64,000 nt of DNA from an uncultured Eubacteriales bacterium (GCA_964415195.1 CAYPYD010000001.1:327378-391377), one strand, 5' to 3'. Counted from the stretch's first letter, positions 26,571-54,074 are shown. Numbers and translations are program-made. Notes: a model not told the origin generated them from the letters alone.

Positions 26571-27697
26571 TGAAGAAAATAAAAGTTTTCCTAGTCTTTG
26601 GCACAAGACCAGAGGCAATAAAGATGGCGCCCTTGTTAAAAGAAATGGAAATGCGTGAGGAGTTTGAGTGTGTCGTTTGCGTATCAGCTCAGCATCGCCA
26701 TATGCTGGATCAAGTTCTATCCTTTTTTAAAATAAAACCCCACTATGACCTTAATATAATGAAGGACAGACAAACACTTGATAGTATAACAGTAAATATC
26801 CTTGAACTTTTAACTCCCATATTAAAAAAGGAGAAGCCAGATATTGTCCTGGTTCATGGTGATACTACCACTTCCTTTGTTGGAGCACTAGCTGCCTTTT
26901 ATGAAAAAATAACCATAGGCCATGTAGAAGCTGGATTACGCACCTGGGATAAATATTCACCCTTTCCGGAAGAAGCAAACAGGATGATGGTTGATAGTAT
27001 TTCAGATATGTTTTTTGCTCCTACACAAAATAGTGCCGACAATCTAAGATGCGAAGGTAAGGAAAAGGGAATATATATTACTGGTAATACAGCAATAGAT
27101 GCTATGAAATATACAGTGCTTGATGATTATCATCATCCAATATTAGCTGAACAAAAAAACAATAGAATTATATTACTAACAGCACACCGTAGAGAAAATC
27201 TGGGAAAACCTATGGAAAATATTTTTGAAGCGGTTTTAAAGATTGTTAATGAGTATGAGGATGTTAGTGTTATTTATCCAATTCATATGAACCCTGCTAT
27301 TAGAGAAATTGCTGATAATATTTTAAGAGGACATAAGCGAATACAAATCATTGAACCACTTGAGGTTTTTGATTTTCATAATTTTATTGCTGGTTCTTAT
27401 CTTGTGTTAACAGATAGTGGCGGGATTCAAGAAGAAGCCCCTTCTCTTGGCAAACCTGTCCTGGTACTTCGTAATACTACTGAAAGACCAGAAGGAGTTG
27501 AATGTGGTACTTTAAAGCTTATAGGTACCAAAAGTGAAGATATATATGATAATATTAAATTGTTATTAGATAATAGTGAGGCATATGAGGAAATGAGCGT
27601 TGCCAAAAATCCTTATGGAGATGGTTTTTCATCTCGCTACATTGCTGATGCTATAAAGAAACATTTCAAAGAAAAAAGCTTGTTATTAGAAATATAA
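26570..27697 (+). CDS. wecB: UDP-N-acetylglucosamine 2-epimerase (non-hydrolysing)
   Basis: 'VFGTRPEAIKMAPL', 'VHGDTTTSF', 'HVEAGLRT' and 'TDSGGIQEEAPSLGKPVLVLR'. The start overlaps the GT2 stop (TAATG), implying translational coupling. Confidence 0.9.
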   Translation: MKKIKVFLVFGTRPEAIKMAPLLKEMEMREEFECVVCVSAQHRHMLDQVLSFFKIKPHYDLNIMKDRQTLDSITVNILELLTPILKKEKPDIVLVHGDTTTSFVGALAAFYEKITIGHVEAGLRTWDKYSPFPEEANRMMVDSISDMFFAPTQNSADNLRCEGKEKGIYITGNTAIDAMKYTVLDDYHHPILAEQKNNRIILLTAHRRENLGKPMENIFEAVLKIVNEYEDVSVIYPIHMNPAIREIADNILRGHKRIQIIEPLEVFDFHNFIAGSYLVLTDSGGIQEEAPSLGKPVLVLRNTTERPEGVECGTLKLIGTKSEDIYDNIKLLLDNSEAYEEMSVAKNPYGDGFSSRYIADAIKKHFKEKSLLLEI

Positions 27698-37824: not shown

Positions 37825-39141
37825 TTACTTTTCTTCATCAAGTAAAGACTTTAAGATCCTCGCTCCGTAAGTTGCACCACGAGATCTGAGGACACTACTC
37901 CAATACTTTATGGCCTTTAGATCCAAATGATTAATAGCCTTATCTAAAGCAAGATTAATATTCTTATCATCAAGATTATTTGGATCAAGCACAACACCTA
38001 AGCCAAGATGCTCTGCATCATAGGCAATGTTAAACTGATCACTAGAAAAAGGTAGAATAACCATCGGTATACCGTAATAAAGACTCTCAGTAAAAGTATT
38101 ACAACCACCATGATGAACTACTAAATTCATTTGATTAAGAATTGCCTTTTGGGGAACAAAATCACGAATAAGAACCTGATCATTCTTATATCCCGTTAAT
38201 TCCAAACTATGACTACCAGCAGCAACAATAACTAATGCATCAGAATCAAAAGAAATTACTCCATCAACAATCTGCTTTATAACATCAATTCGCTCAGATA
38301 AAAATGTTCCAAAACTAATTAAAACTTTCCTTCTATCATTGTTAAGAATTTTAATCCATTCCTTGTCAGGTATTTCTTCTTTAAAACAACTTCCCAAATA
38401 TATCCTTCTTGGATTTCCTGCTAAATCTTCCATTCCCTCAAAATCAGGATATAGATACATAACAGCCCTGTCAGAGACTAAGCTAAAAGCATCCTCAACT
38501 AAAGGTGCCTGAGAATCAACCTTTTTAATAAAGTTATTGAACGCTGATGTGAAGGTTTCTCTAGTTATATTAGAAACTGCTTTTAAGGTTTCTAATTGGT
38601 CTAGTTCTGGTTCTAGTCCTGATGGCCAGTGTAGGGGAATATTATATGGCAATCCTTTTGTCGGGATACTAGCTGGATGTGGAGGGCAAAAGGTAATGTA
38701 GGGAAGACCCAAACAATGCATGCTTAAAGTAGCACCATATGATAAAAGATCCACAATCCAATAATCTGGCTTAAGTAACTCATTGGTCATCCGAATAGAT
38801 TCAAGAAGTTCTTCCGGATCTGCAAAAGTATCTTCTCTACGATGATTTAACTGGGTAATTAAAGTAGCAACCGGCCCTCTTCTTGTAGCACTGAAAAACT
38901 CTTTGAGACGTATTGTTTCAGAGGATTCCTGAGAGGTCGCTTCAGCTATACCAGTATTTCGATTTCTACTGATATTAAGTTCAATAAACAGTAGACCTTT
39001 TTCTTCTATGTTGGACCTAAACTCCTGACTACAAGCTATAGTAACCTTTAGACCTTGGTCTTTTAATCCAACAGCTAATTCTAAAAGAGGCATAAAATGA
39101 GAATAGAAAGGAGGGCTTAGAATAATGATGTGTTTTATCAT
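37825..39141 (-). CDS. GT1-family (MGT/UDP-glycosyltransferase-like) glycosyltransferase
   Basis: C-terminal nucleotide-sugar motif 'HHGGCNTFTESLYYGIPMVILPFSSDQ'. The start overlaps the upstream gene's stop by 4 nt (ATGA). Confidence 0.75.
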   Translation of the reverse strand: MIKHIIILSPPFYSHFMPLLELAVGLKDQGLKVTIACSQEFRSNIEEKGLLFIELNISRNRNTGIAEATSQESSETIRLKEFFSATRRGPVATLITQLNHRREDTFADPEELLESIRMTNELLKPDYWIVDLLSYGATLSMHCLGLPYITFCPPHPASIPTKGLPYNIPLHWPSGLEPELDQLETLKAVSNITRETFTSAFNNFIKKVDSQAPLVEDAFSLVSDRAVMYLYPDFEGMEDLAGNPRRIYLGSCFKEEIPDKEWIKILNNDRRKVLISFGTFLSERIDVIKQIVDGVISFDSDALVIVAAGSHSLELTGYKNDQVLIRDFVPQKAILNQMNLVVHHGGCNTFTESLYYGIPMVILPFSSDQFNIAYDAEHLGLGVVLDPNNLDDKNINLALDKAINHLDLKAIKYWSSVLRSRGATYGARILKSLLDEEK

Positions 39142-41192
39142 AGTGTCTTTGTCTCCTTTACTTTTTTGTAGAAAGCAAGAATGCTTAAGGCTATTTTTTC
39201 GATAGAATAGCGATTTACTACGGTAGCATGTCCTTTTTTACAGATTTTAGCATAATCATCCATATCTAGTTCGGTATCGTATATAATCTTTTCAATATCT
39301 TGAATCATTGTTTTGGCACTTATGGTATTTATGAAAAATCCATTAATACCTTGTTTTAAATATGTTCTGACTCCACCTTTGATTGGGGCGAAAACTAGCC
39401 AACCTTCATATAAAGCTTCTAAGATTGAAAGACCGAATTCTTCTTTTTTACTTGATGAAACATAAATATTTGGTACATCCCCTTTTTTTTCTAGGAGTGC
39501 TTTTTCAAGACAGCGGATTTTTTCGTTGCTTTGGGCATCCAAGCGTACAAAACTTCCCTCTAAACTGGGGTGTTCTTCCATAAAGGTATCGAAGAAATCT
39601 AACATTTCCTGTTCTTCCTTCGTAGGTTTTTTACTATCACCACCAATTAGTACTAAGTTGTAATTTTGGTTTAGTCTAGAATTCCCCCAGGCTATGAGTA
39701 GTTGGTCCTGGCCTTTAAGTTGGCTGAGCCTACCTACATTTAAAATGGTAGGTCTTTGTAAGTTCTCTTCTGTAATATAATGACGAAGGTTTGGATTACA
39801 AAGAATTTCTTTTATTTCAACTTTATTATATGGTGGTTCAGTATCGATGCCTTCTCCGATCATCCGAAAGAGGAAGTGCTCATGACCGTACCTCAGTTGT
39901 GGGAAATATTGCATTAACTCATTACGAATTTTTGAACCTCCAATACCTAGAATTCCTTGTGCTAGGCAAAGGAGTTTGTCTCCAACATAGATTTTGTTTG
40001 ATAGAGTCAAAGCTTCGGTGGTCGTGAATGATTTTAGTGTTCCGGTTTTTTCGACTAGATTACGGTGAGGATCCGGGGTGATGGTAAATATCAATGTGGA
40101 TTTTAGTTCATTGGCTGCTTCAGCAACTGCAAGTGATGCATTGTCTAGATAACGTATATGAAATATATCCGGACGGATTCCTAGGAAGCTCATTGATTTT
40201 AGGATTGTCCGTTTTATTACTAATTGTTTGGTGGCAAAATCAGCTGGATTGTTTGGGTCGAGATTTAAGGGCATTCTGTAAACATAGTGATTGGGAGCTG
40301 CTTCTTCTAGTAGTTTCCAACCAAATTCCCATTTTTTACTGACAGTTAGGGTGATTATTTTGTCTACTTCTTTGTTCTTTGCCAAGTGGTTTCCTATGCT
40401 TTTTAAAAGTATTCCAAGACCACCACTGTTTCCTAGACCAGTGGTATAGGGGTCGCCATAAAACATAGTTTGAACTATTGTTAGGGTATCTGCTTTTTTT
40501 GGCAATATTGTGTTTAATAGTCTGTAGTCAAGATAGTCATTAAAGACTTGGGGGTTATGTTCGTTAGCGATGATGGTTTTCAAACTCCTTATAAAGGGGG
40601 CATATTTAGCCCTTGGTCCTTTTAAGTTTATTAGGGTATCTATTATAAGGAGCTTCAAGTTCTCATAGTAGGGCTCTTTTAGAAGGCCTTCTAGGTGCTT
40701 TTCTAGCTGTTTAACCTTGAAGCAGTTAATATACTCTACTAGTTGTTTCAATGTATTGTAATTGTAGCGATGTATTTGTATTAGTGTTTGTAATTGATGG
40801 AGATTTAGGAGTTTGGTTTTGGTTTCAATTAGATAGTCCAAAAGGTGAAAAAGGATAATGTGTTCCTGATCCTTTTGGAGTAGTTTTTCTAATATTTTGT
40901 TATCCAAGGATTCCAATCGGTGGTTTTTTTTGTTTTTGATGAGTAAATCTATGATTGCTCGGTTCAAATAGGGATTTGGGCCTAGTTGTTCAAGCCAGGT
41001 GTGTAGTTCTTCTTGTGTTGTGGATGGGTTTTGTAGTTGTTTTCTGATTTTGTTTAGTTGTTGTATTTGGTCATTTTGGCCATAGATGTCCATATTATCA
41101 TAATGGAGCAGGTAGTATTCATTGAATGTTTGTTCTTCTTCTGGAATATATTCTTTTATGCATTTTTTTCTTGCCTTTATGAATCGGTTCAT
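39138..41192 (-). CDS. GT4-family glycosyltransferase (sucrose-phosphate-synthase-like core) with ~230-aa helical N-terminal extension
   Basis: 'TTGLGNSGGLGILLK' near the start of the GT-B fold and 'EEFGLSILEALYEGWLVFAPIKGG' (E-x7-E-type GT4 motif). The N-terminal part is Leu-rich helical repeats with no recognised catalytic motif. Confidence 0.7.
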   Translation of the reverse strand: MNRFIKARKKCIKEYIPEEEQTFNEYYLLHYDNMDIYGQNDQIQQLNKIRKQLQNPSTTQEELHTWLEQLGPNPYLNRAIIDLLIKNKKNHRLESLDNKILEKLLQKDQEHIILFHLLDYLIETKTKLLNLHQLQTLIQIHRYNYNTLKQLVEYINCFKVKQLEKHLEGLLKEPYYENLKLLIIDTLINLKGPRAKYAPFIRSLKTIIANEHNPQVFNDYLDYRLLNTILPKKADTLTIVQTMFYGDPYTTGLGNSGGLGILLKSIGNHLAKNKEVDKIITLTVSKKWEFGWKLLEEAAPNHYVYRMPLNLDPNNPADFATKQLVIKRTILKSMSFLGIRPDIFHIRYLDNASLAVAEAANELKSTLIFTITPDPHRNLVEKTGTLKSFTTTEALTLSNKIYVGDKLLCLAQGILGIGGSKIRNELMQYFPQLRYGHEHFLFRMIGEGIDTEPPYNKVEIKEILCNPNLRHYITEENLQRPTILNVGRLSQLKGQDQLLIAWGNSRLNQNYNLVLIGGDSKKPTKEEQEMLDFFDTFMEEHPSLEGSFVRLDAQSNEKIRCLEKALLEKKGDVPNIYVSSSKKEEFGLSILEALYEGWLVFAPIKGGVRTYLKQGINGFFINTISAKTMIQDIEKIIYDTELDMDDYAKICKKGHATVVNRYSIEKIALSILAFYKKVKETKTL

Positions 41193-41361: not shown

Positions 41362-41394
41362 TTGTAAAGTATGAATGATGACTGATATAATAAT
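41362..41394 (+). promoter_or_regulatory. Promoter with conserved 17-mer ATGACTGATATAATAAT (copy A)
   Basis: TTGTAA (41362-41367), 18 nt spacer, TATAAT (41386-41391). The 17-mer at 41378-41394 is identical to the copies at 45091-45107 and 49009-49025. Confidence 0.6.
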
Positions 41395-41438
41395 ATTTAA
41401 TAATTAATTTGAATAGTATTTGTCTTGAAGGGAGCCAG

Positions 41439-43409
41439 ATGATGAAAAGAAGGAGCAATTGGACTGTTAAGGTTTTATCGTTAATGATGTCATTGTTTAT
41501 GATGTTAGGTATAGTGTTGTATCTGGGTGGGGGGAAAGTAGAGGCGGCAAATTATCAGCATGATGGAAAATTCGGAAGACTGATTGGGCCAAGTGATATT
41601 GAATTTGATGTTTCAGGTAATATGTATGTAGCTAATTTTAATACTATAAATAAAATTGCACCAGATGGTGAAATAACTATAATTCCAAGTGGTGGGATTT
41701 ATGGTGTTCTAGATAAAGTTTCTGATATAGAATTTGATAGTTATGGAAATATGTATGTTTCCAATTACAACGGAAGAAGCATAAATAAAATTACACCAGA
41801 AGGAGTAATCACAACTGTTAGAAGTGATGGAATATACGGAAGATTTTACTGGATTAATGACATAGCATTCGACAGTGAAGGGAATTTTTATATTGCTGAT
41901 GATAATTTTTATACGGTTAACAAAATAGCTCCTGATGGAACAATAACAGTGATAAAAGGTGGCGCTGAATATGGAGATTTCCATAGAGTTTTTGACATTA
42001 AGTTTGATAATGAAGGAAATATGTGGCTTTCTCACGAAGAGGGTTTCAATATTGTTGAACCAAATGGTAATGTGTATGAATTTGACTATGGTCATTGGAT
42101 AAATGACTTAGAATTTGATAGTAAAGGTAATATAATTTTTGTATCAACAAGCACTGATCAAATAACCAAAATAACGGATGATGAAATAATTACTATTCGA
42201 AATCATGGAGTTTATGGAGAACTTTTCAATCCTTATATGCTAGAATTTGACAGTCAGAATAATATGTATCTTATACCTGGAGATAATTCGATTACGGAAA
42301 TAATTGATTACAGCGGTACATATAACATTGTCTCAAAGAAAAGCAATCTAGTGATGGATGTCTACAATGGGGGTAAAGAGCAAGGTGTCAATGTCATACA
42401 ATGGCCAGAAACTGGTGGATTAAACCAACAATGGAACTTTGAATTATTAGATAATGGTTTCTATAAAATTACTTCGGTTCTATCAGGCATGTCACTAGAT
42501 GTATATAATGCAGGTCTTAATGAAGGAAATCGCGTAATTCAATGGCCATATCATGGGGGCGCAAATCAACAATGGCAATTAATTGAAAATATTGACGGAA
42601 CATTTGGGTTTAAATCTAGATCGTGCTTTGAAAGTTATAATAATTATGTATTAGATGTCTATAATGGAGGAATTACACCTGGAGTCAATGTGATACAATG
42701 GACTGGTCATGATAGTGATAACCAAAAATGGTACCTACAACCAGTAGAAGAACACACCTTGAACTATGAGACTAATGGTGGAAGTACAATTGAAGATAGT
42801 AACCATCTACCAGGAGTAATAATCACAGAACCAACAACCCCAACCAAAGAAAACTCAGTATTCGGAGGCTGGTATAAGGATGCAGAACTAACACAAAAAT
42901 GGTACTTCACCAAAAACAGGATGCCAGCAACAAATCTAACACTATATGCCAAATGGGAAGAAGATATTAGTGGAGTCTACAATATAAGATCCAAGAACAG
43001 CAATCTTGTAATGGATGTATACAATGGAGGCACTGACCAAGGAGTAAACGTAATCCAATGGCCACTCCATGGTAGAAGCAACCAACAATGGAAATTTGAA
43101 ACCCTAAATAATGGCTACTATAAGATAACATCAATGCTTTCTGGAATGTCAATTGATGTCTACAATGGTGGAACTAACCTAGGCAATAGAGTAATTCAAT
43201 GGCCATACCATGGTGGAATCAACCAACAATGGAAAATAATTAAAAATAGTGACGATACCTACTCACTGATGTCAAGACTAGCAGAAGAAAGTGGGACAGG
43301 ATACATTTTAGATGTTTTCGGTGGTGGAATGGACCAAGGGGTTAACGTAATCCAATGGACAGCACACTATGGTAACAATCAAAAATGGATACTAGAATCA
43401 GTTAAATAG
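41439..43409 (+). CDS. Secreted NHL-like six-bladed-propeller protein with ricin-B / Flg_new / ricin-B tail
   Basis: ATG at 41439 after GAAGGGAG; the TTG at 41409 is unlikely. Signal peptide ends 'GGGKVEAA'. About 6 repeats 'DIEFDS.GNMYV.N.....INKI.P.G.IT.I'. Tail (~42305-43406) is homologous to the tails of the first two genes. Confidence 0.85.
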   Translation: MMKRRSNWTVKVLSLMMSLFMMLGIVLYLGGGKVEAANYQHDGKFGRLIGPSDIEFDVSGNMYVANFNTINKIAPDGEITIIPSGGIYGVLDKVSDIEFDSYGNMYVSNYNGRSINKITPEGVITTVRSDGIYGRFYWINDIAFDSEGNFYIADDNFYTVNKIAPDGTITVIKGGAEYGDFHRVFDIKFDNEGNMWLSHEEGFNIVEPNGNVYEFDYGHWINDLEFDSKGNIIFVSTSTDQITKITDDEIITIRNHGVYGELFNPYMLEFDSQNNMYLIPGDNSITEIIDYSGTYNIVSKKSNLVMDVYNGGKEQGVNVIQWPETGGLNQQWNFELLDNGFYKITSVLSGMSLDVYNAGLNEGNRVIQWPYHGGANQQWQLIENIDGTFGFKSRSCFESYNNYVLDVYNGGITPGVNVIQWTGHDSDNQKWYLQPVEEHTLNYETNGGSTIEDSNHLPGVIITEPTTPTKENSVFGGWYKDAELTQKWYFTKNRMPATNLTLYAKWEEDISGVYNIRSKNSNLVMDVYNGGTDQGVNVIQWPLHGRSNQQWKFETLNNGYYKITSMLSGMSIDVYNGGTNLGNRVIQWPYHGGINQQWKIIKNSDDTYSLMSRLAEESGTGYILDVFGGGMDQGVNVIQWTAHYGNNQKWILESVK

Positions 43410-43423
43410 TTGATAAAAAACCA

Positions 43424-43455
43424 AAAAACACCCTCAATAACGAGGGTGTTTTTCT
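43424..43455 (+). terminator. Intrinsic terminator
   Basis: aaaaacaccctc aataac gagggtgttttt. Confidence 0.8.
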
Positions 43456-43551
43456 TACACTTTTTGGCAAAGTTGTTATTTCCCAGGATAAGGCGTATAC
43501 TTGTTGTATGAGAAGCAACGGGACAGAGGCTATAAGCCAGAGGAGATAAAC

Positions 43552-44157
43552 ATGGATAAAATTATAATAAAAGCGCTTGAACGACCTAAGAAAACAGGAA
43601 AATTTAGAGAACAAGGATTCGTAGCAGGTGTACTATACGGAGAAGGCATGGACGCATCAGCATCAGTTAAGTTTGATGCAGCAGTCATAAGAAACCTACT
43701 CTCCCAACACGGTTCTAATGCAAAAATTTGGGTAGACTACAATGGAACAGAAAAATTTGGCTTTATAAAAGCAACACAAAGTGATGCACTATCAAATAAA
43801 CTAATGCACGTTGATATACAAATAATAGCCAAAGACCAAAAAATGAAAATCCAAATTCCAATAAGATTTATTGGCGAAGAAGCATTAAAAGAAAAAGATT
43901 TAGAACTACATATTTCCAAACATGAAGTAACAGTAACGGGAGATATGAATAAAATGCCTGAATCAATAGAAATTGATGTAAGTGCCTTAGAACTTGGTGG
44001 ACAAGTAACTTATGAAGATTTCAAACTGGATGAAAGCCTTATAACCGATGAAAAAGAATTAGCTTATGCAGTAGTCAATCATCTTAAACTGATGAAAGTT
44101 GAAGAAACAGCAACTGAAACTGTAGCTGAAACCGCAGAAACTGCTAAACCAGAATAA
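43552..44157 (+). CDS. ctc: Ribosomal protein L25 / general stress protein Ctc family
   Basis: ATG at 43552, 6 nt after AGGAG. 'KALERPKKTGKFREQGFVAGVLYG', a beta-barrel domain, then an acidic C-terminal tail, as in Ctc-type L25. Confidence 0.75.
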   Translation: MDKIIIKALERPKKTGKFREQGFVAGVLYGEGMDASASVKFDAAVIRNLLSQHGSNAKIWVDYNGTEKFGFIKATQSDALSNKLMHVDIQIIAKDQKMKIQIPIRFIGEEALKEKDLELHISKHEVTVTGDMNKMPESIEIDVSALELGGQVTYEDFKLDESLITDEKELAYAVVNHLKLMKVEETATETVAETAETAKPE

Positions 44158-44191
44158 ATTGACCTAAAAAAATATAGTAAGAATAAGTAAT

Positions 44192-44227
44192 AAAAAAGTA
44201 GAGATTCTTAGAATCTCTACTTTTTTT
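44192..44227. terminator. Bidirectional terminator
   Basis: aaaaaagtagagattc tta gaatctctacttttttt. Confidence 0.85.
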
Positions 44228-44250
44228 ATCCTGAGTTGTAAGATTTTAAT

Positions 44251-44997
44251 TTATTTTAAGTTTATGGCCAAGGTTCTGTAATGATTGTCTTTAGGAGCTG
44301 TCTTAATAAGAAACTCAAAATCCTTTAATCCTAAATCATTTTTATTATTGGCAAGATACAAAGCCCCTCTAAAAAATAAAGCAGTAGCATCAGTAGGATT
44401 AATACCTAGTGCTAAAGTATAGTCAGCTATAGCCATGTCAGTATTACCTAAGGCTTCATATACTCTTCCACGATGAGTGAAAGAACAAGCAAAACCCTGA
44501 CGTACTTTAATAGCCTCAGTAAAATCTGCTATAGCAAGTTGATAATTCCCTAACTTATGATGTAGAAGCCCCCTGTTATTAAAAGCACTTCCATGATTAG
44601 GATCTAATTTAATAGCAGAAGAAAAATCTTTAAGAGCCTTATCATTCTGGTCAAGTTTAGCATATATCAAGCCTCTATTATAGTAGGAATTAACATCATT
44701 TTTATCAATTAAGATTGCTTTAGAAAAATCCTTAATCGCTTCATCATAACGTTCTAGAGTAGCAAGAACATCTCCTCTTGAACTAAATACTTCTGCATCT
44801 TGATCATCAAGTAGAATAGCACTACTGTATGCTTCAAGTGCATTAATATAATCACCAACCTCTTCTAAAAGATTACCTTTTAAGATATATGGTTCCTTAT
44901 TTTTCGGCGCTTCTAAAGCTGCCTTATCGTATTCGGCAATCGCTTCCTTGAAGAGACCTTCTTTTTCTAATCTTAAACCTATTTCTAGTCTTAACAT
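44251..44997 (-). CDS. TPR-repeat protein
   Basis: Seven consecutive 34-aa repeats of the form 'A..D...AI.LDP....A..NRG..Y..LG.Y..A'. Confidence 0.85.
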   Translation of the reverse strand: MLRLEIGLRLEKEGLFKEAIAEYDKAALEAPKNKEPYILKGNLLEEVGDYINALEAYSSAILLDDQDAEVFSSRGDVLATLERYDEAIKDFSKAILIDKNDVNSYYNRGLIYAKLDQNDKALKDFSSAIKLDPNHGSAFNNRGLLHHKLGNYQLAIADFTEAIKVRQGFACSFTHRGRVYEALGNTDMAIADYTLALGINPTDATALFFRGALYLANNKNDLGLKDFEFLIKTAPKDNHYRTLAINLK

Positions 44998-45074
44998 ATA
45001 ATTCCCCGTCTTTCATTTTTTGAATATAGTCTTATGATAGCATACTATATGAATAAACATAGATGAAAAATCAT

Positions 45075-45107
45075 TTGCACTATTTGTAGGATGACTGATA
45101 TAATAAT
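45075..45107 (+). promoter_or_regulatory. Promoter with conserved 17-mer ATGACTGATATAATAAT (copy B)
   Basis: TTGCAC (45075-45080), 18 nt spacer, TATAAT (45099-45104); 17-mer at 45091-45107. Confidence 0.6.
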
Positions 45108-45155
45108 AAAAAACCATTTGCAATAGATAGTTTTAATAAACATAATGAGGTAAAT

Positions 45156-47696
45156 ATGAAACAAAAAAATAAAATATATTTAATAATTACAACTTTGCTA
45201 ATGTTAGGAATACTTTTTTTCACAAAGAGTAATCTTCAAGCAAAAATACTACCCCAGCCCCTACCTGTTTGGAGTCAAGAAATAGGTGGAGAAATACCAA
45301 ACTATTTTAATGATATCCAACAAACAAAAGATGGCGGATATATTGTCGCAGGTAGTCAAGTTGAACTAGGTACTACACAAACTGATGCTTTAATAATGAA
45401 GATTGATGCTTCAGGTAACAAATTATGGAACCAGATATTTAGTGGCGAGGGTAACGATTTATTCAATTCAGTATGGCCAACAGAAGATGGTGGATATATT
45501 GCAGTAGGTGGCGGTACTGCTGGAATTATTGTGAAATTTGATGCTAACGGGGCTAAAGTCTGGGATCAAGTATATGCGAGAGAAAAAGATGATATTTTTA
45601 AATCAGTCCAACAAACATCTGATGGTGGCTTTATTGTTGCAGGTGGTGGCACTGATGGGCTTTTAGTTAAATTTGACTTTAATGGAAATAAAATCTGGGA
45701 TCAAGTTTATGAAAACAAAACCAATGATCATTTCAATTCTGTTATTCAAACAGTTGATGGAGGATACATAGCAGTAGGTGGAAGTACAGAAGGCATTCTT
45801 GTTAAATTTGATTTAAATGGAAATAGAGAGTGGAACAAAGAATTTACTAGTGAAAAATCAGGCTATAAAGATATCAAACAAACACAAGATGGAGGATTTA
45901 TAGTAGTAGGTGATAGTCATCTTGTTAAACTTACTAACGAAGGAACTATAGAATGGGACAAAAAAGCAGATATTTCAAAACTAGAGAATTTTGAGACTGT
46001 ATCTTTAACTAGTGATGATGGCTTTGTATTTGTTGGTAGTAAAGAATCAGAAGTTAGTGGTATTAAAGATGGTCTGTTGGTTAAGTACGATATTGAAGGT
46101 AATAAACAGTGGGAACAAACTTACGGTGGAAAATTAAAGAATGAATTGATGTCAGTGATCCAATCTAGTGATGATGGTTATGTGGCAGTTGGTAATATTG
46201 AGGACTCAAATATTGATGGCAACACTAATGGGCTTATAGTTAAGTTTCAACAAAGTGACTTATTAGAAACAGAGGCAGTTGTTAGTGATTTATCTGGTAT
46301 ATTTACAATCCGTAATAAAAATAGTGGATTGTTAATGGATGTCTATAATAGAGGGATAGAAAAGGGTAATAATATTATTCAATGGTCCGGGACTGAAAGT
46401 ATGAATCAAAAATGGAAGTTCGAGAAGCTGGAAAATGGATTTTATAGGATTACTTCTTTGTTTTCTGGTTTATCTTTGGATTTATATAATGCTGGAGAAA
46501 ACCAAGGTAATCATTTGATTCAATGGCCATATCATGGTGGCATAAACCAACAGTGGCAAATAATTGAAAATTCTGATGGAACAATTACTTTTAAATCTAG
46601 ATTGAATTTAGAAAATGGAGGCAATTTTGTTCTTGATGTATATAATGCTGATTCCACTCCTGGTAATTATGTTATTCAGTGGCCTCTTGATGGGGGAGAT
46701 AGTCAGAAGTGGTATATAGAAGATGCTTATCAAAATCCTGGTAAGGATTTTACGGGTACCTATAATATATTGTCAAAGAATAGTGGAATGGTGATGGATG
46801 TTTATAATGGGGGTAAGGATCAAGGGAATAATATTATACAATGGTATGCCCACGGTGGTATTAATCAACAATGGAGTTTTGAAAAATTAGATAATGGTTA
46901 CTATAAGATTACTTCTGTTTTATCTGGTATGTCTTTAGATGTATATAATGGAGGTTATGATCAAGGAAATCGAGTTATTCAATGGCCATATCATGGCGGT
47001 ACCAATCAACAATGGCGTGTGATTGAGCATTCTGATGGTAGTATTTCTTTAAGATCTAGAATGGCTGAGGAGAATTATACCTATTTTGTTTTAGATGTCT
47101 TTAATGGTGGAACAACAGCCGGTGTAAATGTAATACAGTGGGCAGCTCATTATCGTGATAATCAAAGATGGTTATTAGATGAATCATTCAAAGAGCCTGT
47201 TCCTCCCCTAAAGATTTTGGATGTTCCAATAATTGCCCAAAGACCTGAGCTTCCAACAGGTTGTGAAATTACTGCCACTACTATGTTGTTTAATTATGCT
47301 GGTGCAAATGTTAATAAGGTTACTTTAGCTTATGAGATGCCAAAGCACCCAACTAATCCTAATTTGGGTTTTGTTGGTAGTCCTTTCTTAGCTTCTGGTT
47401 GGACTGTGAATCCTCCTGCATTGATGAATTTGTATAGGAAGTATCTTGGTAGTGCTGTTGATTTGACTGGTTCTGATATGCGAAGTATTGAGTATTATGT
47501 CTCAAGGAACAAGCCGGTTGTGGTTTGGGTTAGTGCTTTTTATGGTTTTAGTGTTCATGCTATTACTGTAACTGGTTATGATAGTAATTATATATTCTAT
47601 AATGATCCTTGGTCAGGTGTTAAGAATGCTAGAATAGATAGAAGTCTTTTCATGATTAGATGGAGCGGTCAAAGTTTTAGGGCAATGTCTTTTTAA
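45156..47696 (+). CDS. Secreted beta-propeller-repeat protein with two ricin-B trefoils and a C-terminal C39-like (YvpB-type) cysteine peptidase domain
   Basis: Signal peptide ends 'SNLQA'. About 7 repeats 'DGGYI.VG.....G.LVKFD.NGNK.W.Q.....D.F.SV.QT'. Trefoils at ~46281-46725 and ~46746-47195. The tail 'LDVPIIAQRPELPTGCEITATTMLFNYAG' has a candidate catalytic Cys. Confidence 0.8.
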   Translation: MKQKNKIYLIITTLLMLGILFFTKSNLQAKILPQPLPVWSQEIGGEIPNYFNDIQQTKDGGYIVAGSQVELGTTQTDALIMKIDASGNKLWNQIFSGEGNDLFNSVWPTEDGGYIAVGGGTAGIIVKFDANGAKVWDQVYAREKDDIFKSVQQTSDGGFIVAGGGTDGLLVKFDFNGNKIWDQVYENKTNDHFNSVIQTVDGGYIAVGGSTEGILVKFDLNGNREWNKEFTSEKSGYKDIKQTQDGGFIVVGDSHLVKLTNEGTIEWDKKADISKLENFETVSLTSDDGFVFVGSKESEVSGIKDGLLVKYDIEGNKQWEQTYGGKLKNELMSVIQSSDDGYVAVGNIEDSNIDGNTNGLIVKFQQSDLLETEAVVSDLSGIFTIRNKNSGLLMDVYNRGIEKGNNIIQWSGTESMNQKWKFEKLENGFYRITSLFSGLSLDLYNAGENQGNHLIQWPYHGGINQQWQIIENSDGTITFKSRLNLENGGNFVLDVYNADSTPGNYVIQWPLDGGDSQKWYIEDAYQNPGKDFTGTYNILSKNSGMVMDVYNGGKDQGNNIIQWYAHGGINQQWSFEKLDNGYYKITSVLSGMSLDVYNGGYDQGNRVIQWPYHGGTNQQWRVIEHSDGSISLRSRMAEENYTYFVLDVFNGGTTAGVNVIQWAAHYRDNQRWLLDESFKEPVPPLKILDVPIIAQRPELPTGCEITATTMLFNYAGANVNKVTLAYEMPKHPTNPNLGFVGSPFLASGWTVNPPALMNLYRKYLGSAVDLTGSDMRSIEYYVSRNKPVVVWVSAFYGFSVHAITVTGYDSNYIFYNDPWSGVKNARIDRSLFMIRWSGQSFRAMSF

Positions 47697-47745
47697 TTAT
47701 GCTGTAATAATTAAAATTAACGCATAAAATATAATACAAGGTAAC

Positions 47746-48582
47746 GTGAACGAAATGGATTTTGTAACTTCTATAACATATTATCGTTTAGGAAAAATAG
47801 AAACGCAAGAAATACCTCTTTTAGCAACAAACGCTTTAGAGCAAGGTTATGACAGCCCTTCTTTGAGAATTCTAGCAGGGTTGTTACCTGGTATAACAAG
47901 TAAGTGGGAAATTGATAGTTATCTGAAAAGCACAATGAAAGAATTAAAAATAGAGGAAACTAGTCAAGGGGTAACATGTTTTGTGATAATAAGATATTTC
48001 TTGGAACAAATAGTTGATGAAGAAATTAGTCCCGTTGAAGGATTGAAGAAAATAGTTGACTCTGTTTTCAATACTACTAGTTTCCAACAGCTAAGATTGC
48101 ATGAAATGAACAAGAAATATGCAAACGATTATTTTGAATTCAATAATCTTTATAGCCTATATTATCAAAGCGATGACCTATATAACACCTACTATTCTGG
48201 TTCGAAAAAGTATAAGCTAAGTGAATTAGAAATTAGTAATAGTATAATAGAAGAAGCAAAAATATATCTAAATAAATATGAAAAAATCTTAAATCTAATT
48301 ATAGCTCATGAAAAGTTTTTGGGAATCATTAAAAACATAAAAGGAAAGAGTAGTGATAGTTGCCAAGAACTGGTTGAAAGGATTAGTAACATAATCCTTA
48401 AATTTGGTATAGTTCCCATAATTTGTGAATCTAGGAAGAAAAAAAGTATCTTTGGCAAACTGAAAAAATATTCAATTGGATATGTAATGAATAAAGAAAT
48501 GAGAATTATCTTATATGTCGTTATAATTGAAGAAAATAAGATATTTATGATTGAGGATATTAACTTGAAAGTGGAGGTGTAA
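47746..48582 (+). CDS. Hypothetical cytoplasmic protein
   Basis: 278 aa with no signal peptide or TM helix and no recognised motif. GTG start (alternative ATG at 47755). Confidence 0.45.
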   Translation: MNEMDFVTSITYYRLGKIETQEIPLLATNALEQGYDSPSLRILAGLLPGITSKWEIDSYLKSTMKELKIEETSQGVTCFVIIRYFLEQIVDEEISPVEGLKKIVDSVFNTTSFQQLRLHEMNKKYANDYFEFNNLYSLYYQSDDLYNTYYSGSKKYKLSELEISNSIIEEAKIYLNKYEKILNLIIAHEKFLGIIKNIKGKSSDSCQELVERISNIILKFGIVPIICESRKKKSIFGKLKKYSIGYVMNKEMRIILYVVIIEENKIFMIEDINLKVEV

Positions 48583-48584
48583 AG

Positions 48585-48929
48585 TTGGAGGCAAACAAAA
48601 ATTATGGTATGCCAGCAATTGCAGTAGTTTCTTTAGTACTTGGTCTTAGTAGTTTTATTTTACCGATCTTTTTATTTATAATAGGTATATTTATTGAACC
48701 CTTTTTTATCTTGAATGGTATTCTTTATTCCCCATTATTGGCAATTCCTTCAATTATATGCGGAACGATTGCCTATAAGAAGATAGCAACAGATAACCAT
48801 CCAGTAAGGATTATTGTTTTTATTGGAATGTTAATAGGCTCATTTGCCTTATTAATACAATTTTCTCTATATCTTTTCCCAGTTATGCTAGGCCATGCTT
48901 TAGAGATGTTATATTTTTGGTTAAATTAA
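48585..48929 (+). CDS. Small polytopic membrane protein (DUF4190-like)
   Basis: TTG start 7 nt after GGAGG. 3-4 TM helices in 114 aa. Confidence 0.5.
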   Translation: MEANKNYGMPAIAVVSLVLGLSSFILPIFLFIIGIFIEPFFILNGILYSPLLAIPSIICGTIAYKKIATDNHPVRIIVFIGMLIGSFALLIQFSLYLFPVMLGHALEMLYFWLN

Positions 48930-48935
48930 TTTTTT

Positions 48936-48970
48936 AAAACCTAGAAGGTTAAAACTTTCTAGGTTTTTTT
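48936..48970 (+). terminator. Intrinsic terminator
   Basis: aaaacctagaa ... ttctaggttttttt. Confidence 0.8.
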
Positions 48971-48992
48971 ATTTCAAAAATTTAAAAAGCAG

Positions 48993-49025
48993 TTGTATAT
49001 TATGATGTATGACTGATATAATAAT
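48993..49025 (+). promoter_or_regulatory. Promoter with conserved 17-mer ATGACTGATATAATAAT (copy C)
   Basis: TTGTAT (48993-48998), 18 nt spacer, TATAAT (49017-49022); 17-mer at 49009-49025. Confidence 0.6.
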
Positions 49026-49093
49026 GTAAAATATGTTCTATTATTGGTGAGTTTTGATTTAGTATATCAAATTTGAAAAGGTGAGGGACAAAG

Positions 49094-51601
49094 ATGGAAA
49101 AAAGAAAATTACTTATACTATTTACAACAATTATTATGATTCTAGGCACGCTTTTCTTTACAAAAAGTCATGTTGAGGCACTAGTATTGCCACAATCATT
49201 TCCTATGTGGGATAAGTTAATTGGCGGAGGAGGTACAGACCAATTTAAAGATATCCAACCGACTAATGATGGAGGATATGTTGTAGTGGGAAGTACATAT
49301 ATGCCTCAAAATGGTGTTTTTACAGATAACAATAATGGTTTAACAGATGCATTGATGATAAAATTTGACGCTTCTGGGAACATAGTGTGGGATCAAGTAT
49401 TTGGTGGAGCTGGTCATGAATCATTTTATGCAGTAATGCCTACGTCTGATGGTGGGTATATTGCAGTCGGTTATACTGATTCTTCTGCGAACGGTGAAAT
49501 CTCAGATGCAAATAATGGATACAATGATGGACTAATGGTTAAATTTGATGCAAATGGCAACAAAGAGTGGGACCAAGTATTTGGAGGAACAAGCCATGAT
49601 AAATTCAACTCAGTACAACAAACAATTGATGGTGGTTATATAGTAGCTGGTTCTACATCCTCAACAACTGGTGGAGAAATATCTGATTCAAACAATACTA
49701 ATTATTATAGTAATGATGGTCTATTAGTAAAATTTGATAAAGATGGCAATAAGCAATGGGATCAATTGTTTGGAAATGATAAAGAGGATACCTTTAATTC
49801 TGTTATACAAACTGCTAACGGAGAATATATTATAGCTGGTAATACAGAATATTCAATTACAGGAGAAATATCTGATCAAAACAATGGTGGTTATGATGGT
49901 CTTATAGTTATGTTTGATACAGAAGGTGATAAAATATGGGATAAAACATATGGTGCTAATAACTCTGATTATTTCAATGATATAGAAAAAACAAAAGATG
50001 GAGGATACATTGTAGTAGGTGGTACTTATTCATCAGAAAATGGTGATATAACACATAAAAATAATGGTGAGCATGATGGTCTTTTAGTAAAATTTGATAT
50101 CAATAATAATAATGAATGGGTACAAGTCACTGGTGGATCAGAAAGTGAGTCATTTATTGCAGTTTCTATAACAAACGATGACGGTTATGTGGTTACAGGT
50201 AGAACTGTTTCACCAATTAGTGGTGATATAACAGATGAAAATAACGGCTATGATGACGGACTTTTAATGAAGTTCGATATTAATGGCAACAAAGAATGGG
50301 ATCAAGTATTTGGTGGTGAAAGAAGTGAAATGCTGAATGGAGTGTGTCAAACAAGTGATGGTGGATACATTGCTGCTGGATATACAAATTCACCTGTAAG
50401 TGGAGAAATAACAGATGTGAAAAATGGTGGAGATGATGGTCTTTTAGTAAAATTTCATAAATTTGGAATAAATCCGATAGAAGTAGGCGCAAATATAATA
50501 ACTGGAATAGGCAATCCAGGTGACACAATAACAGTTATATTGCCAGATGAAAGCGAAACAGAGACCATAGCAGAAGCTGATGGAACATGGAGCATGACTT
50601 TACCAACTAAAGCCAAAGGTGGAGATTTCTTTATTATAGTTAATCAGAATGGATTAACTGCCACAGAATTAGTTGTAAGTGATTTAAATGGTATCTTCAC
50701 TATACGTTCTAAAAATAGTGGGTTATTGATGGATGTTTATAATAGAGGCGTTGATAAAGGTACAAATGTAATTCAATGGGCAGCTACAGGTGGCATAAAT
50801 CAAAAATGGAAATTTGAAAGATTAGATAATGGATTTTATAAGATAACATCAATGTTTTCTGGAATGTCACTTGATGTATATAATGCAGGAAATAGTGAGG
50901 GAAATCATGTAATTCAATGGCCATACCATGGAGGAGCAAATCAACAATGGTATTTAATTGAAAATCCTGATGATGGAACAATAACTTTTATTTCAAGATT
51001 AAGTTTAGAGAATGAGAATGATTATGTTTTAGATGTCTATAATGGCGGAAAAACTGCAGGTGTCAATGTAATTCAATGGTCATACCATGGTGGAGACAAT
51101 CAAAAATGGTACATAGATAAAGTAACTAAAGAATTTCCAGAACCAAGTAAAGACTACACAGGCACCTACAATATACGATCACAAAAGAGCCAATTACTAA
51201 TGGACGTATATAATGAAGGAAAAGATAAAGGAACCAACGTCATACAATGGGAAGCTAACAATGGACTAAACCAAAGATGGAATTTTGAAAAATTAGAAAA
51301 TGGATACTATAAAATAACATCTGTAATGTCAGGAATGTCCTTGGATGTATATAACGGCGGCAGTGATCTAGGCAATCGAGTAATCCAATGGCCTTATCAT
51401 GGAGGAACCAATCAACAATGGAGGATAATAGAAAACGATGATGGAAGTATCTCACTAATGTCAAAACTGGCTGAAGAAAACTACACTTACTATGTACTTG
51501 ATGTATTTAACGGAGGAACAACAGCCGGAGTAAATGTAATACAATGGACACCACTAAACCAAATTAATCAAAAATGGAATTTAGAGGAAATATCAAAATA
51601 A
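49094..51601 (+). CDS. Secreted beta-propeller-repeat protein with an Ig-like spacer and two ricin-B trefoils
   Basis: Signal peptide ends 'SHVEA'. About 8 repeats 'DGGYI.VG.T.S...GEI.D.NNG..DGL.VKFD.NGNKEWDQVFGG'. 'GANIITGIGNPGDTITVILPDESETETIAEADGTWSMTLP' is a Big-like module. Trefoils at ~50672-51125 and ~51151-51598. Confidence 0.85.
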   Translation: MEKRKLLILFTTIIMILGTLFFTKSHVEALVLPQSFPMWDKLIGGGGTDQFKDIQPTNDGGYVVVGSTYMPQNGVFTDNNNGLTDALMIKFDASGNIVWDQVFGGAGHESFYAVMPTSDGGYIAVGYTDSSANGEISDANNGYNDGLMVKFDANGNKEWDQVFGGTSHDKFNSVQQTIDGGYIVAGSTSSTTGGEISDSNNTNYYSNDGLLVKFDKDGNKQWDQLFGNDKEDTFNSVIQTANGEYIIAGNTEYSITGEISDQNNGGYDGLIVMFDTEGDKIWDKTYGANNSDYFNDIEKTKDGGYIVVGGTYSSENGDITHKNNGEHDGLLVKFDINNNNEWVQVTGGSESESFIAVSITNDDGYVVTGRTVSPISGDITDENNGYDDGLLMKFDINGNKEWDQVFGGERSEMLNGVCQTSDGGYIAAGYTNSPVSGEITDVKNGGDDGLLVKFHKFGINPIEVGANIITGIGNPGDTITVILPDESETETIAEADGTWSMTLPTKAKGGDFFIIVNQNGLTATELVVSDLNGIFTIRSKNSGLLMDVYNRGVDKGTNVIQWAATGGINQKWKFERLDNGFYKITSMFSGMSLDVYNAGNSEGNHVIQWPYHGGANQQWYLIENPDDGTITFISRLSLENENDYVLDVYNGGKTAGVNVIQWSYHGGDNQKWYIDKVTKEFPEPSKDYTGTYNIRSQKSQLLMDVYNEGKDKGTNVIQWEANNGLNQRWNFEKLENGYYKITSVMSGMSLDVYNGGSDLGNRVIQWPYHGGTNQQWRIIENDDGSISLMSKLAEENYTYYVLDVFNGGTTAGVNVIQWTPLNQINQKWNLEEISK

Positions 51602-51605
51602 ATAC

Positions 51606-51639
51606 AAAAACCTGGATGGACAAACCATCCAGGTTTTTT
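51606..51639 (+). terminator. Intrinsic terminator
   Basis: aaaaacctggatgg acaaa ccatccaggtttttt. Confidence 0.85.
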
Positions 51640-51910
51640 AATGCATAATTTCTCAAAGAATATTTAACCTATTTCATAAGTTAACCTTAACTTAACCATA
51701 ACTATACTTAAGGTTTAAGATGATATGTATAAAATATATTGAATATACTATAAAAATAATAAATATATGATAATTTGACACTATTTGAGTAATTTTTATC
51801 TGAAAAATAATTAAAAAAATAGTTGTAAGCTACAATATTATGTGGTAAACTGTGGGTAAATTGGAATGAGTATTAGTTTAATTAAAACTTAAAGCAATTA
51901 ATGTTTTAAT

Positions 51911-51946
51911 GTAGAACTGATTTTATAGTAGAACTAATTTTATAAT
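51911..51946 (+). promoter_or_regulatory. Tandem 17-bp direct repeat GTAGAACT(G/A)ATTTTATA x2 overlapping a TATAAT -10
   Basis: Repeats at 51911-51927 and 51928-51944 match at 16 of 17 nt. TATAAT at 51941-51946, 29 nt before the S8 protease start. Confidence 0.5.
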
Positions 51947-51974
51947 CATAATCTGAACATAGGGGGGAAGAAAA

Positions 51975-54074
51975 ATGATTAATGGGAAAAGACACATAAA
52001 AATGCTTATTTTTTCGTTGGTGTTTTTTCTGCCAATATTATTAGGTAGCAATATTTATGCAACTGAAGAAGAAAATGACTATCTAATAATGTTCGACAAT
52101 ACCACATCAAGAGTCGAAGTAACAGCAGAATCGGGCATTCAAAAAGATATAAAAGAAACTCACAAAAACATTAACGTAGTAAAAGCAACTATGACAAATG
52201 ATGAAGCTAAAGAACTAAGAAAAGATGAGGGAGTAAAAGTAGTAATCCAAGATTTAAAAACTGAAGTTTTAGCTGATGAAGTCACATGGAGCACAACAAT
52301 GATGCAAGCACCAGCAGCTTGGAATACAGGATATTCAGGACTAGGTGTAAAAGTGGCAGTACTAGATACAGGTATAGCCAACCATACAGAATTATCTGTT
52401 GTAGGAAGAAAAGACTTTATTACAACAGGAGGAACAGCAACCGATATCCATGGACACGGAACTGCTGTAGCAGGAGTAATAGCCAGTAAAAACAATAATA
52501 CTGGAATAATAGGAGTAGCACCAAACGTACAACTATATGCTGTAAAAGTCATGGATAATAGTGGTGCAGGTTCATTAAGTACTCTAATTTCAGCTATAGA
52601 TTGGTGTATAACAAATGGCATTGAAGTTGCTAACCTATCATTGGGAATAGATTATTCCAAATTATCAGCTTCAGATAAGATATTTTTCACTGACTTTATA
52701 AATAATGTTGGGGAAAAAGCTTTAGCAAACAATCTCCTTTTAGTAGCGGCATCTGGTAATGATGGAAATGCTACAGGAATAGACAACATGTCGATACCGG
52801 CTAGAGGTACAGGCTTCTTGGGAGTCGGAGCGGTTGACTCCAATAAAAACCTAGCATCATTTTCAAGTATTGGACCAAATATGGATGTGGTAGCACCTGG
52901 AGTCAATATAAAAACTCTAGGAACAAGCAACAATTATAAAATAGCAAGTGGAACATCATTCGCAGCACCTAACGTAGCAGGATTAGCAGCTTTATATATG
53001 GAAAGATTTCCAAATTATACTGCTCAGCAAATAACAGAATTAATCACAGGATACGCAGAAGACAGAGGAACTACAGGATTTGATAACTATTACGGAAATG
53101 GATTAGCAAAATTTCAAACAATTATTGGAAACATAGGGGAAGTTTCAAATAAGGATCTAAGTGGTATATATACTATAAGATCAAAAAACAGTGGTTTACT
53201 TATGGATGTCTTTAACGGTGGCCGTGACAAAGGAACAAATGTTATACAATGGCCAGCCACAGGCGGTGTGAACCAAAAATGGAAATTCCAAAAACTAGAA
53301 AATGGTTTCTACCAAATTACATCTGTTTTAAACCCTGACTATAGTCTGGATGTCTATGGTGGAGGAACTAGTTCTGGAACAAAAGTAATACAATGGTCGT
53401 ACCATGGAGGAACTAATCAACAATGGCGTTTGTATGAAAACACAGATGGAACTGTTACCTTCATGTCAAGACTAAGCAGTGAAAACAAAACAAATTACGT
53501 TCTAGATGTCTATGGTGGAGGAAAAACAGCCGGCGTCAATGTTATACAATGGGGAGCACACGGTGGTGATAATCAAAGATGGTACCTAGACAAAGCAGTT
53601 AAAGAACTACCAGTAAACACAAAAGACCACTCAGGAACCTATAATATAAGATCTCTAAATAGCGGTCTACTTATGGACGTATTTAATGGAGGACAGGACC
53701 AAGGCACTAATGTTATACAGTGGGCAGCAACTGGAGGAACAAATCAAAACTGGAAGTTTGAAAAACTAAGCAATGGCTATTACAAAATAACTTCAGAACT
53801 GTCTGGAATGTCACTTGATGTATATGATGGTGGCACTACTCAAGGAAATAAAGTTATTCAATGGCCTTATCATGGTGGGAACAACCAACAATGGAGAATA
53901 GTTGAAAATACCGATGGTAGTATATCATTGATGTCGAAACTATCAGAAGAGAACTACAGTTACTTTATACTCGATGTATTTAATGGTGGAACCACCAAAG
54001 GAGTTAACGTAATACAGTGGTCTTCAATATATAGTCCAAACCAAAAATGGGTATTAGATACAGTTGCTAAATAA
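51975..54074 (+). CDS. Secreted subtilisin-like S8 serine protease (I9-type propeptide) with two ricin-B trefoils
   Basis: Signal peptide ends 'SNIYA'. Propeptide 'YLIMFDN...VKATMTNDEAKELRKDEGVKVV'. Catalytic triad motifs 'VAVLDTGI', 'HGHGTAVAGVIA' and 'SGTSFAAPNVAG'. Trefoils at ~53151-53605 and ~53626-54071. Confidence 0.9.
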   Translation: MINGKRHIKMLIFSLVFFLPILLGSNIYATEEENDYLIMFDNTTSRVEVTAESGIQKDIKETHKNINVVKATMTNDEAKELRKDEGVKVVIQDLKTEVLADEVTWSTTMMQAPAAWNTGYSGLGVKVAVLDTGIANHTELSVVGRKDFITTGGTATDIHGHGTAVAGVIASKNNNTGIIGVAPNVQLYAVKVMDNSGAGSLSTLISAIDWCITNGIEVANLSLGIDYSKLSASDKIFFTDFINNVGEKALANNLLLVAASGNDGNATGIDNMSIPARGTGFLGVGAVDSNKNLASFSSIGPNMDVVAPGVNIKTLGTSNNYKIASGTSFAAPNVAGLAALYMERFPNYTAQQITELITGYAEDRGTTGFDNYYGNGLAKFQTIIGNIGEVSNKDLSGIYTIRSKNSGLLMDVFNGGRDKGTNVIQWPATGGVNQKWKFQKLENGFYQITSVLNPDYSLDVYGGGTSSGTKVIQWSYHGGTNQQWRLYENTDGTVTFMSRLSSENKTNYVLDVYGGGKTAGVNVIQWGAHGGDNQRWYLDKAVKELPVNTKDHSGTYNIRSLNSGLLMDVFNGGQDQGTNVIQWAATGGTNQNWKFEKLSNGYYKITSELSGMSLDVYDGGTTQGNKVIQWPYHGGNNQQWRIVENTDGSISLMSKLSEENYSYFILDVFNGGTTKGVNVIQWSSIYSPNQKWVLDTVAK

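Follow-up and report, generated by a model that had tools for sequence, protein, structure and literature searches.

A double ricin-B trefoil cassette on exported proteins of an uncultured Eubacteriales bacterium and its possible role in wall anchoring

The window analysed here, a stretch of 64,000 nt from an uncultured Eubacteriales bacterium (GCA_964415195.1, CAYPYD010000001.1:327378-391377, or C1:327378-391377 of a 1.69-Mb assembly with 33% G+C that is 98% complete), carries six genes whose products share a cassette, defined as two tandem ricin-B trefoils of ~300 amino acids (aa) with or without a Flg_new spacer. The cassette recurs in three genes elsewhere in the genome, and the resulting nine-member family of Sec-exported proteins is lineage-specific. 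We establish the domain identity, size, motif conservation and mobility of this family together with its phyletic and architectural patterns, and we propose, with confidence evenly balanced for and against, that the cassette tethers its cargo, without a covalent bond, to a glycopolymer of the cell's own envelope. It would thereby fill the role played by ChW repeats in sister species and by SLH domains in order-level relatives, and the cargo held at the surface would comprise an S8 protease, a C39-like peptidase, beta-propellers and a beta-helix/cadherin-like head of adhesin type.

The six window genes are named P1 to P6 in their order along the window; G000 is the window's own genome and G001-G010 are relatives. 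Their open reading frames (ORFs) lie at the following coordinates, and the translations are open throughout.

P1, 2..2746, + strand: 3′ portion of a gene for 1358 aa whose start lies 1332 bp ahead of the window; head of Gly-rich beta-helix (Beta_helix_3) and two cadherin-like domains (Pfam); cassette 1649-2743, with Flg_new at ~2090-2290.
P2, 2982..5885, + strand: signal peptide; multi-blade propeller-like repeats (DUF6242/HVO_0234-like); cassette 4788-5882, with Flg_new at ~5229-5429.
P3, 41439..43409, + strand: signal peptide; NHL-like propeller head; cassette 42312-43406, with Flg_new at ~42753-42953.
P4, 45156..47696, + strand: signal peptide; PQQ_2/BamB-like repeats; internal cassette 46293-47180; C39-like cysteine peptidase (Peptidase_C39_2) at ~47217-47612.
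P5, 49094..51601, + strand: signal peptide; repeats in the head, paralogous to the P4 head; Big_6-like domain; cassette 50687-51598.
P6, 51975..54074, + strand: signal peptide; I9-like propeptide; S8 subtilase (Peptidase_S8); cassette 53160-54071.

The full-length P1 also has a signal peptide, and P3 starts at the ATG at 41439, behind the ribosome-binding site GAAGGGAG, rather than at the TTG at 41409. Genome-wide, the C39_2 peptidase of P4 is the sole copy in G000 and P6 is the sole S8 of its type.

All six products match both PF14200 (RicinB_lectin_2; five to seven stretches each, E 1.9e-62 to 5.4e-88, 208-290 bits against a cut-off of 25.6) and PF00652 (Ricin_B_lectin; two or three stretches per protein, 102-115 bits against a cut-off of 29), in agreement with the original prediction, made from the sequence alone, of six genes with a double trefoil. 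When one trefoil was used as a tblastn query, exactly the 12 predicted copies were strongly matched inside the window, at 56-73% aa identity to query trefoils, and Pfam places Flg_new between the trefoils of P1, P2 and P3, matching the three genes that had been foreseen in number. The description of the heads needed more revision. Pfam replaces the BNR label for P2 by a DUF6242/HVO_0234-like propeller and the SBBP label for P4 by PQQ_2/BamB-like repeats. The statement that the heads differ completely holds insofar as unrelated heads occur, but those of P4 and P5 are paralogous (the P5 head is 38-46% identical to the G005 orthologue of P4) and that of P3 resembles those of C2a and C5a, two genes listed below. 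The family size had also been understated: beyond the six window genes, a genome-wide count finds three cassette genes and three genes with distant trefoils on other contigs, bringing the cassette genes of G000 to nine, with 18 trefoils. The three cassette genes outside the window are these.

C2a, C2:21619-23617: NHL-like head, Flg_new insert.
C5a, C5:93233-91344: NHL/SBBP-like head.
C5b, C5:91042-87545: cassette N-terminal, right after the signal peptide, followed by repeats and Big_2/Big_3.

The distant trefoils belong to a 191-aa secreted protein, a membrane-anchored protein and a large autolysin (C15:4188-7571, 1112 aa as scanned) with the order ChW - Glucosaminidase - two distant ricin trefoils - Amidase_3; the G001 orthologue of this autolysin has five ChW repeats against the single ChW match in G000. 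The gene for the 191-aa single-trefoil protein directly precedes one for a secreted RHS-repeat protein of 2058 aa whose C-terminal region is distinct (C3:25994-32813), and the pair is possibly a lectin-assisted polymorphic toxin.

Export was called by a crude rule combining signal peptide and hydrophobicity. It flags all nine cassette proteins as bearing a signal peptide, so the earlier expectation that they are exported is upheld at the level of prediction. Cassette proteins make up 9 of the 19 flagged ORFs of at least 600 aa, and several of the other ten are penicillin-binding proteins or membrane sensors. Among the flagged ORFs we noticed no more than two LPXTG-like sortase substrates, and G000 has a single sortase. 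A Pfam search and the signal/hydrophobicity scan found no LPXTG motif, transmembrane segment or other wall-binding module in P1-P6.

The double trefoil behaves as a portable cassette, as had been predicted: it is joined to unrelated exported heads, it occurs in three positions (C-terminal, internal in P4 and N-terminal in C5b), and over 1088 nt the P1 tail matches the P2 tail at 93.6% identity. The likeness of these two tails starts at the first trefoil, the heads being unrelated. Within the C-terminal trefoils of P1 and P2 lies a 371-bp tract, identical on the + strand between 2306-2676 and 5445-5815, with no mismatch inside it, 59 in the aligned stretch to its 5′ side (from 1657) and 13 in the 70 bp to its 3′ side. 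Outside the tract the tails are otherwise ~91% identical, and an identical tract inside more diverged tails indicates recent gene conversion. In a tree of the 18 trefoils, N- and C-terminal positions require 2 label changes as against 6.3 for shuffled labels, and monophyly of the N-terminal trefoils is compatible with the data (approximately unbiased test, p-AU 0.44); the exception is C2a, whose two trefoils group with each other. Since N- and C-terminal trefoils are largely separate on the tree, the pair has mostly been copied as a unit. That unit moves between genes through duplication, domain shuffling and gene conversion.

Comparison with the congener G005 points to constraint on the cassette. 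Between P3 and its G005 orthologue the cassette is 91% identical with a ratio of nonsynonymous to synonymous substitution rates (dN/dS) of 0.08, and the head 54% identical with a dN/dS of 0.30; P6 is 84% identical to its G005 orthologue, with a cassette dN/dS of 0.07. Judged by these ratios, the cassette is under purifying selection.

The sub-repeats likewise conform to one pattern. All 54 sub-repeats of the 18 trefoils genome-wide (three per trefoil) match the motif D-[VLI]..[IL]QW..(N/S)QxW, and the variable (N/S) position is Asn in 53 of them; the predicted three Q-x-W motifs per trefoil are thus present in every case. We take the motif positions to be the residues (Asp, aromatic, Asn-Gln) that form the sugar sites in R-type lectins, as in the ricin B chain. 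On that footing the six putative sugar sites per cassette look intact, and we infer carbohydrate binding only from this site signature. With six intact signatures, the cassette is most likely a hexavalent lectin that would bind a repetitive glycan by avidity.

That the tails are true ricin-B/CBM13 trefoils follows from Pfam, from sequence matches in PDB and from Foldseek. The best PDB sequence matches are ThreeFoil (3PG0, 9e-33) and the Clostridium thermocellum CBM13 of the exo-beta-1,3-galactanase 3VSF (2e-21), and other leading solved relatives are CBM13 modules of alpha-galactosidase, arabinofuranosidase and xylanases. In Foldseek searches with an AlphaFold2 (AF2) model of the cassette the leading matches are all beta-trefoil proteins; a single trefoil reaches a template modelling (TM) score of 0.79 against ThreeFoil, normalised to the target, and the whole model sits among double-trefoil lectins, with the mosquitocidal holotoxin 2VSA and HA33 proteins on top. 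The likeness to clostridial HA33-type haemagglutinins that had been pointed out therefore stands for the fold but is weak in sequence (E ~1e-6). Membership of the HA33/HA1 group was rejected on that value, set against 9e-33 for ThreeFoil and 2e-21 for CBM13, and on the lack of toxin-complex neighbours.

Wall anchoring is suggested by what takes the place of the cassette in related genomes. SLH has no match in any of the seven genomes of the genus and 16, 38 and 49 matches in three genomes of the same order, while CWB2 has none in the genus or in any genome tested. ChW gives 14, 9, 7 and 12 matches in the four cassette-less congeners and one each in the cassette-bearing G000 and G005; the single match of G000 is in the C15 autolysin. 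Wall-binding repertoires (SLH, ChW, ricin trefoil) turn over fast in this order. Homologues of the P4 C39 peptidase in congeners (44-54% identical) are attached to ChW in G006 (ChWx7-C39), G001 (ChW-C39) and G002 (ChW-C39), and to the double trefoil in G000 and G005, so the same enzyme family is found with alternative modules. The ChW-C39 gene of G002 (G002:C4:45000-47700) appears split into a 400-aa ChW ORF and an overlapping 225-aa ChW-C39 ORF in a different frame, likely by a frameshift. S8 matches share an ORF with SLH in G009 and G010, and G008 has an S8-trefoil protein.

More distant homologues were sought by searching 5.8 billion proteins with the cassette; 120 matches were listed, three of them G000's own and 117 foreign. 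Among the foreign matches listed, 35 (30%) are on peptidoglycan-acting enzymes (18 GH25, 5 Amidase_3, 7 Glucosaminidase, 1 M23 and 4 YkuD), one of which also carries ChW; others are with SH3_3, PG_binding_1 or ChW, 10 with GH59 and 9 with S8. Some of the Pfam names for these homologues are presumptive, and GH25, Amidase_3, Glucosaminidase and ChW were confirmed by profile. Within this list, peptidoglycan-acting enzymes are the commonest cargo of the closest homologues. Parasporobacterium paucivorans has a GH25 - Big_2 - trefoil - Flg_new - trefoil protein, and Youngiibacter multivorans a BspA-type leucine-rich-repeat/Big_2 protein with the cassette. We also count for an anchoring role the distant trefoils on G000's own glucosaminidase/amidase_3 autolysin. 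ChW itself is a wall-binding module found mostly on endolysins, its ligand not known (PMC5817068), and the C-terminus of a ChW-containing endolysin has served for non-covalent surface display on Lactococcus (PMC6700490).

Anchoring on the cell's own envelope is the best single reading because the cassette takes the place, in architecture and in phyletic distribution, that ChW and SLH hold elsewhere, because its closest homologues are most often on enzymes that must find the bacterial wall, and because the proteins have nothing else to keep them on the cell. The original prediction of a non-covalent anchor analogous to SLH or CWB2 thus gains real but circumstantial support, from the absence of SLH and CWB2, the complementarity with ChW, the C39 fusions and the peptidoglycan-enzyme cargo; its suggestion that the ligand comes from a GT2-WecB pair in the window is not supported.

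Several points weigh against wall anchoring. An own-envelope ligand and a cell-bound location are what we infer from circumstantial evidence. The complementarity of ChW and cassette rests on six related genomes and may go back to as few as one or two evolutionary events. P4 and the ChW-C39 genes do not lie in syntenic positions, and identity between their C39 domains is no more than 44-54%, which speaks for replacement at the level of the family and not for a swap in place, and a candidate S8-ChW fusion in G001 was not confirmed, as the S8 stands alone there and a small ChW gene merely follows. Classical CBM13 modules of glycosidases are the nearest relatives of known structure, and GH59 accompanies 10 of the 117 listed homologues, making the binding of an external polysaccharide plausible. 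The AF2 model, built from a six-sequence alignment, is of moderate quality (predicted local distance difference test score 66). Finally, three candidate glycan synthases (GT2-MshEN, GT4-type and GH94-like) do not track the cassette across congeners.

Each of these synthases was rejected as the source of the ligand. GT2-MshEN (24546-26570) is present in the cassette-less G001 and G004, absent from the cassette-bearing G008 and interrupted by a stop in G005; the ManNAc polymer that had been proposed from the GT2-WecB pair (24546-27697) is accordingly not supported, as GT2 fails to co-occur with the cassette. The GT4-type gene (39138-41192), divergent from P3, is present in the cassette-less G002 and G006. 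It belongs to a pair of overlapping glycosyltransferase genes, Glycos_transf_1-type and GT28/MGT-like (37825-41192, - strand), which is kept beside the P3 orthologue of G005 and the first gene of which is also found in the lectin-less G002. The GH94 glucan-synthase-like gene beside C2a occurs in G002 and G006, which lack the cassette, as well as in G000 and G005. This gene, from C2:23957 onward, has an open frame of 2931 aa with GH94 supersandwich and glucoamylase-like domains and resembles a cyclic beta-1,2-glucan synthase. Around the cassette genes on C2 and C5, the scanned neighbours are housekeeping genes, Pfam-less ORFs or the GH94 gene, with no linkage to a wall-polysaccharide locus.

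If the ligand is not on the cell's own wall, the cassette might bind a secreted exopolysaccharide, or glycans on neighbouring microbes or surfaces, and the proteins would be biofilm cross-linkers or co-aggregation adhesins. Vibrio RbmC/Bap1, which combine a beta-propeller with a lectin, offer a parallel, and several heads here are beta-propellers or adhesin-like beta-helix/cadherin-like arrays. The source in rock metagenomes, with relatives in biofilm, digester and wastewater samples, would suit such matrix proteins, hexavalency fits a polymeric ligand, and the window has a GT2 synthase with WecB. That synthase, however, does not co-occur with the cassette, an external ligand would leave the proteins without a hold on the cell (they have no LPXTG, transmembrane segment or other wall module), and both the ChW replacement in congeners and the peptidoglycan hydrolases among homologues point to the wall; we consider a matrix role rather unlikely.

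We judge more improbable the classical CBM13 role, in which the cassette would target enzymes or binders to external galactan, xylan or arabinan of plants, algae or fungi. The best solved relatives are indeed the CBM13 modules of exo-beta-1,3-galactanase, alpha-galactosidase, arabinofuranosidase and xylanases, and besides the 10 of 117 close homologues listed with GH59 others are presumably with GH43, GH76 or pectate lyase, but none of the nine cargo heads in G000 is a glycoside hydrolase, the cargo is made up of proteases and interaction scaffolds, which would gain little from having a plant glycan close by, and the habitat is rock or subsurface. It is very improbable that the proteins are offensive effectors, with the double trefoil as a cell-binding B-moiety of MTX or HA33 type that delivers the heads to eukaryotic or bacterial cells: the top whole-cassette Foldseek matches are 2VSA and HA33 proteins, and G000 has elsewhere an RHS-repeat protein with an adjoining small trefoil protein, yet in sequence the cassette is only weakly related to HA33 and MTX (E 1e-6 to 4.5e-11) by comparison with CBM13 and ThreeFoil, neither a toxin-type catalytic domain nor a toxin-complex neighbour is present, the neighbouring genes have housekeeping functions, and the environmental source gives no sign of a host. 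As for the earlier alternative that the tail targets host glycans, an animal host is likewise unlikely because the sequence comes from rock metagenomes.

Three of the window genes appear to be linked in their regulation. A 17-mer, ATGACTGATATAATAAT, which contains the extended -10 box TGATATAAT, occurs on the + strand upstream of each of them.

41378-41394, + strand: 17-mer upstream of P3.
45091-45107, + strand: 17-mer upstream of P4.
49009-49025, + strand: 17-mer upstream of P5.

These are its only three occurrences in the genome, and in G005 the orthologues of P3 and P4 have it in the corresponding upstream position (16/17 and 17/17, respectively), in spacers that have otherwise diverged; P3, P4 and P5 therefore probably share a promoter type or regulator.

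Close copies of the cassette were found among 40 relatives only in the congener G005 (13 matches) and in G008, of another genus in the same family; the cassette-less congeners G001, G002, G004 and G006 have distant trefoils only. The NHL, P5 and P2 heads had no homologues at E 1e-6 in the cassette-less congeners or order-level relatives searched. Neighbours of the window genes include ribosomal protein L25, a TPR protein, amidohydrolases and glycosyltransferases. The G005 locus reads GT28-like, GT4-type, P3, L25, TPR, P4, P6, amidohydrolase, the P4 orthologue being followed directly by P6, without P5 and without the two small genes after P4. In the window those two (47746-48929) encode a product of 278 aa that matches nothing in Pfam and lacks an obvious N-terminal signal sequence, and a multi-pass membrane protein of 114 aa. 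The G002 locus has GT4-type, L25, TPR, amidohydrolase and adenine deaminase genes and no lectin gene. Gain of the cassette is not distinguishable from loss, since G000, G005 and G002 are about equidistant in six flanking proteins. In G005, the P4 orthologue (contig C34, 7335-9872) is interrupted by a single in-frame stop (codon 179, within the propeller head), and one in-frame stop is also found in the GT2-MshEN synthase; these may be errors of the metagenome-assembled genome or pseudogenes. The window sequence is present full-length in four rock-metagenome runs, and relatives come from biofilm, digester and wastewater samples.

Display anchors of Gram-positive bacteria comprise LPXTG, SLH, CWB1/2, LysM, SH3b, GW, WxL and ChW, a list from which ricin-type trefoils are missing (PMC5817068, PMC6403190). 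Both papers, broad reviews of surface display and of wall hydrolases, are silent on ricin, trefoil and CBM13 (PMC5817068, PMC6403190), and our literature search for ricin-type trefoils as wall anchors found none in the library searched. The family is a real, well-delimited expansion, specific to this lineage, of a known type of domain put to an unusual use. A wider possibility, one that we take seriously without favouring it, is that the double ricin-B trefoil is a general, undescribed non-covalent wall anchor of some monoderm Bacillota, interchangeable with ChW and SLH, which reads a wall glycopolymer through six sites and displays autolysins and the whole large surface proteome. The modularity of ricin-B domains is unsurprising; it is the pattern of ChW/SLH replacement that provides a testable case for a new class of wall anchor. 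If it is correct, a lineage in which a hexavalent lectin pair stands in for ChW and SLH and bears most of the large exported proteins would add such a class and point to an unknown wall glycan, and would offer a compact ~300-aa module for surface display. Cultured carriers exist in Parasporobacterium paucivorans and Youngiibacter multivorans, making the idea directly testable. Should the ligand prove external, the family would still illustrate clearly how fast domain shuffling and gene conversion can proceed in a small genome.

Among known systems, HA33/HA1 shares with the cassette the arrangement of two tandem beta-trefoils (Foldseek probability 1.0, TM ~0.4) at only 16-22% sequence identity (E 1.7e-6 to 1.9e-4). 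HA33 stands alone as a protein of ~290 aa, encoded in a cluster of toxin genes, whereas the cassette is part of 629-1358-aa proteins encoded among housekeeping genes and is sometimes split by Flg_new. The CBM13/R-type modules (3VSF of Ct1,3Gal43A, Streptomyces xylanase 10A and ThreeFoil 3PG0) resemble it in fold, in PF14200/PF00652 membership, in their three sub-repeats, in the Asp, aromatic and Asn-Gln site residues and in being appended to secreted proteins. Unlike them, it is always a conserved pair, common to nine proteins of a 1.7-Mb genome, its partners are proteases, propellers and adhesin-like heads and never glycoside hydrolases, and it is replaced by ChW in congeners. A network survey of CBM13/ricin-B modules (PMC11212257) reports fusions to enzymes that are not carbohydrate-active, such as peptidases, and to a beta-1,4-N-acetylmuramidase, but as single examples, with no genome-wide shared cassette or wall-anchor role described. 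To ChW (PF07538), SLH (PF00395) and CWB2 (PF04122) the cassette has no relation in sequence or fold (Pfam finds no SLH, CWB2 or ChW homology in P1-P6), so that its likeness to wall-binding modules is functional only, and wall binding by the cassette would be by analogy with them. The functional likeness extends to these three and to the pneumococcal choline-binding repeats, in each of which one repeated module is carried by many unrelated exported proteins; like such repeats, the cassette is found on peptidoglycan hydrolases in relatives, and its distribution is complementary to those of ChW and SLH.

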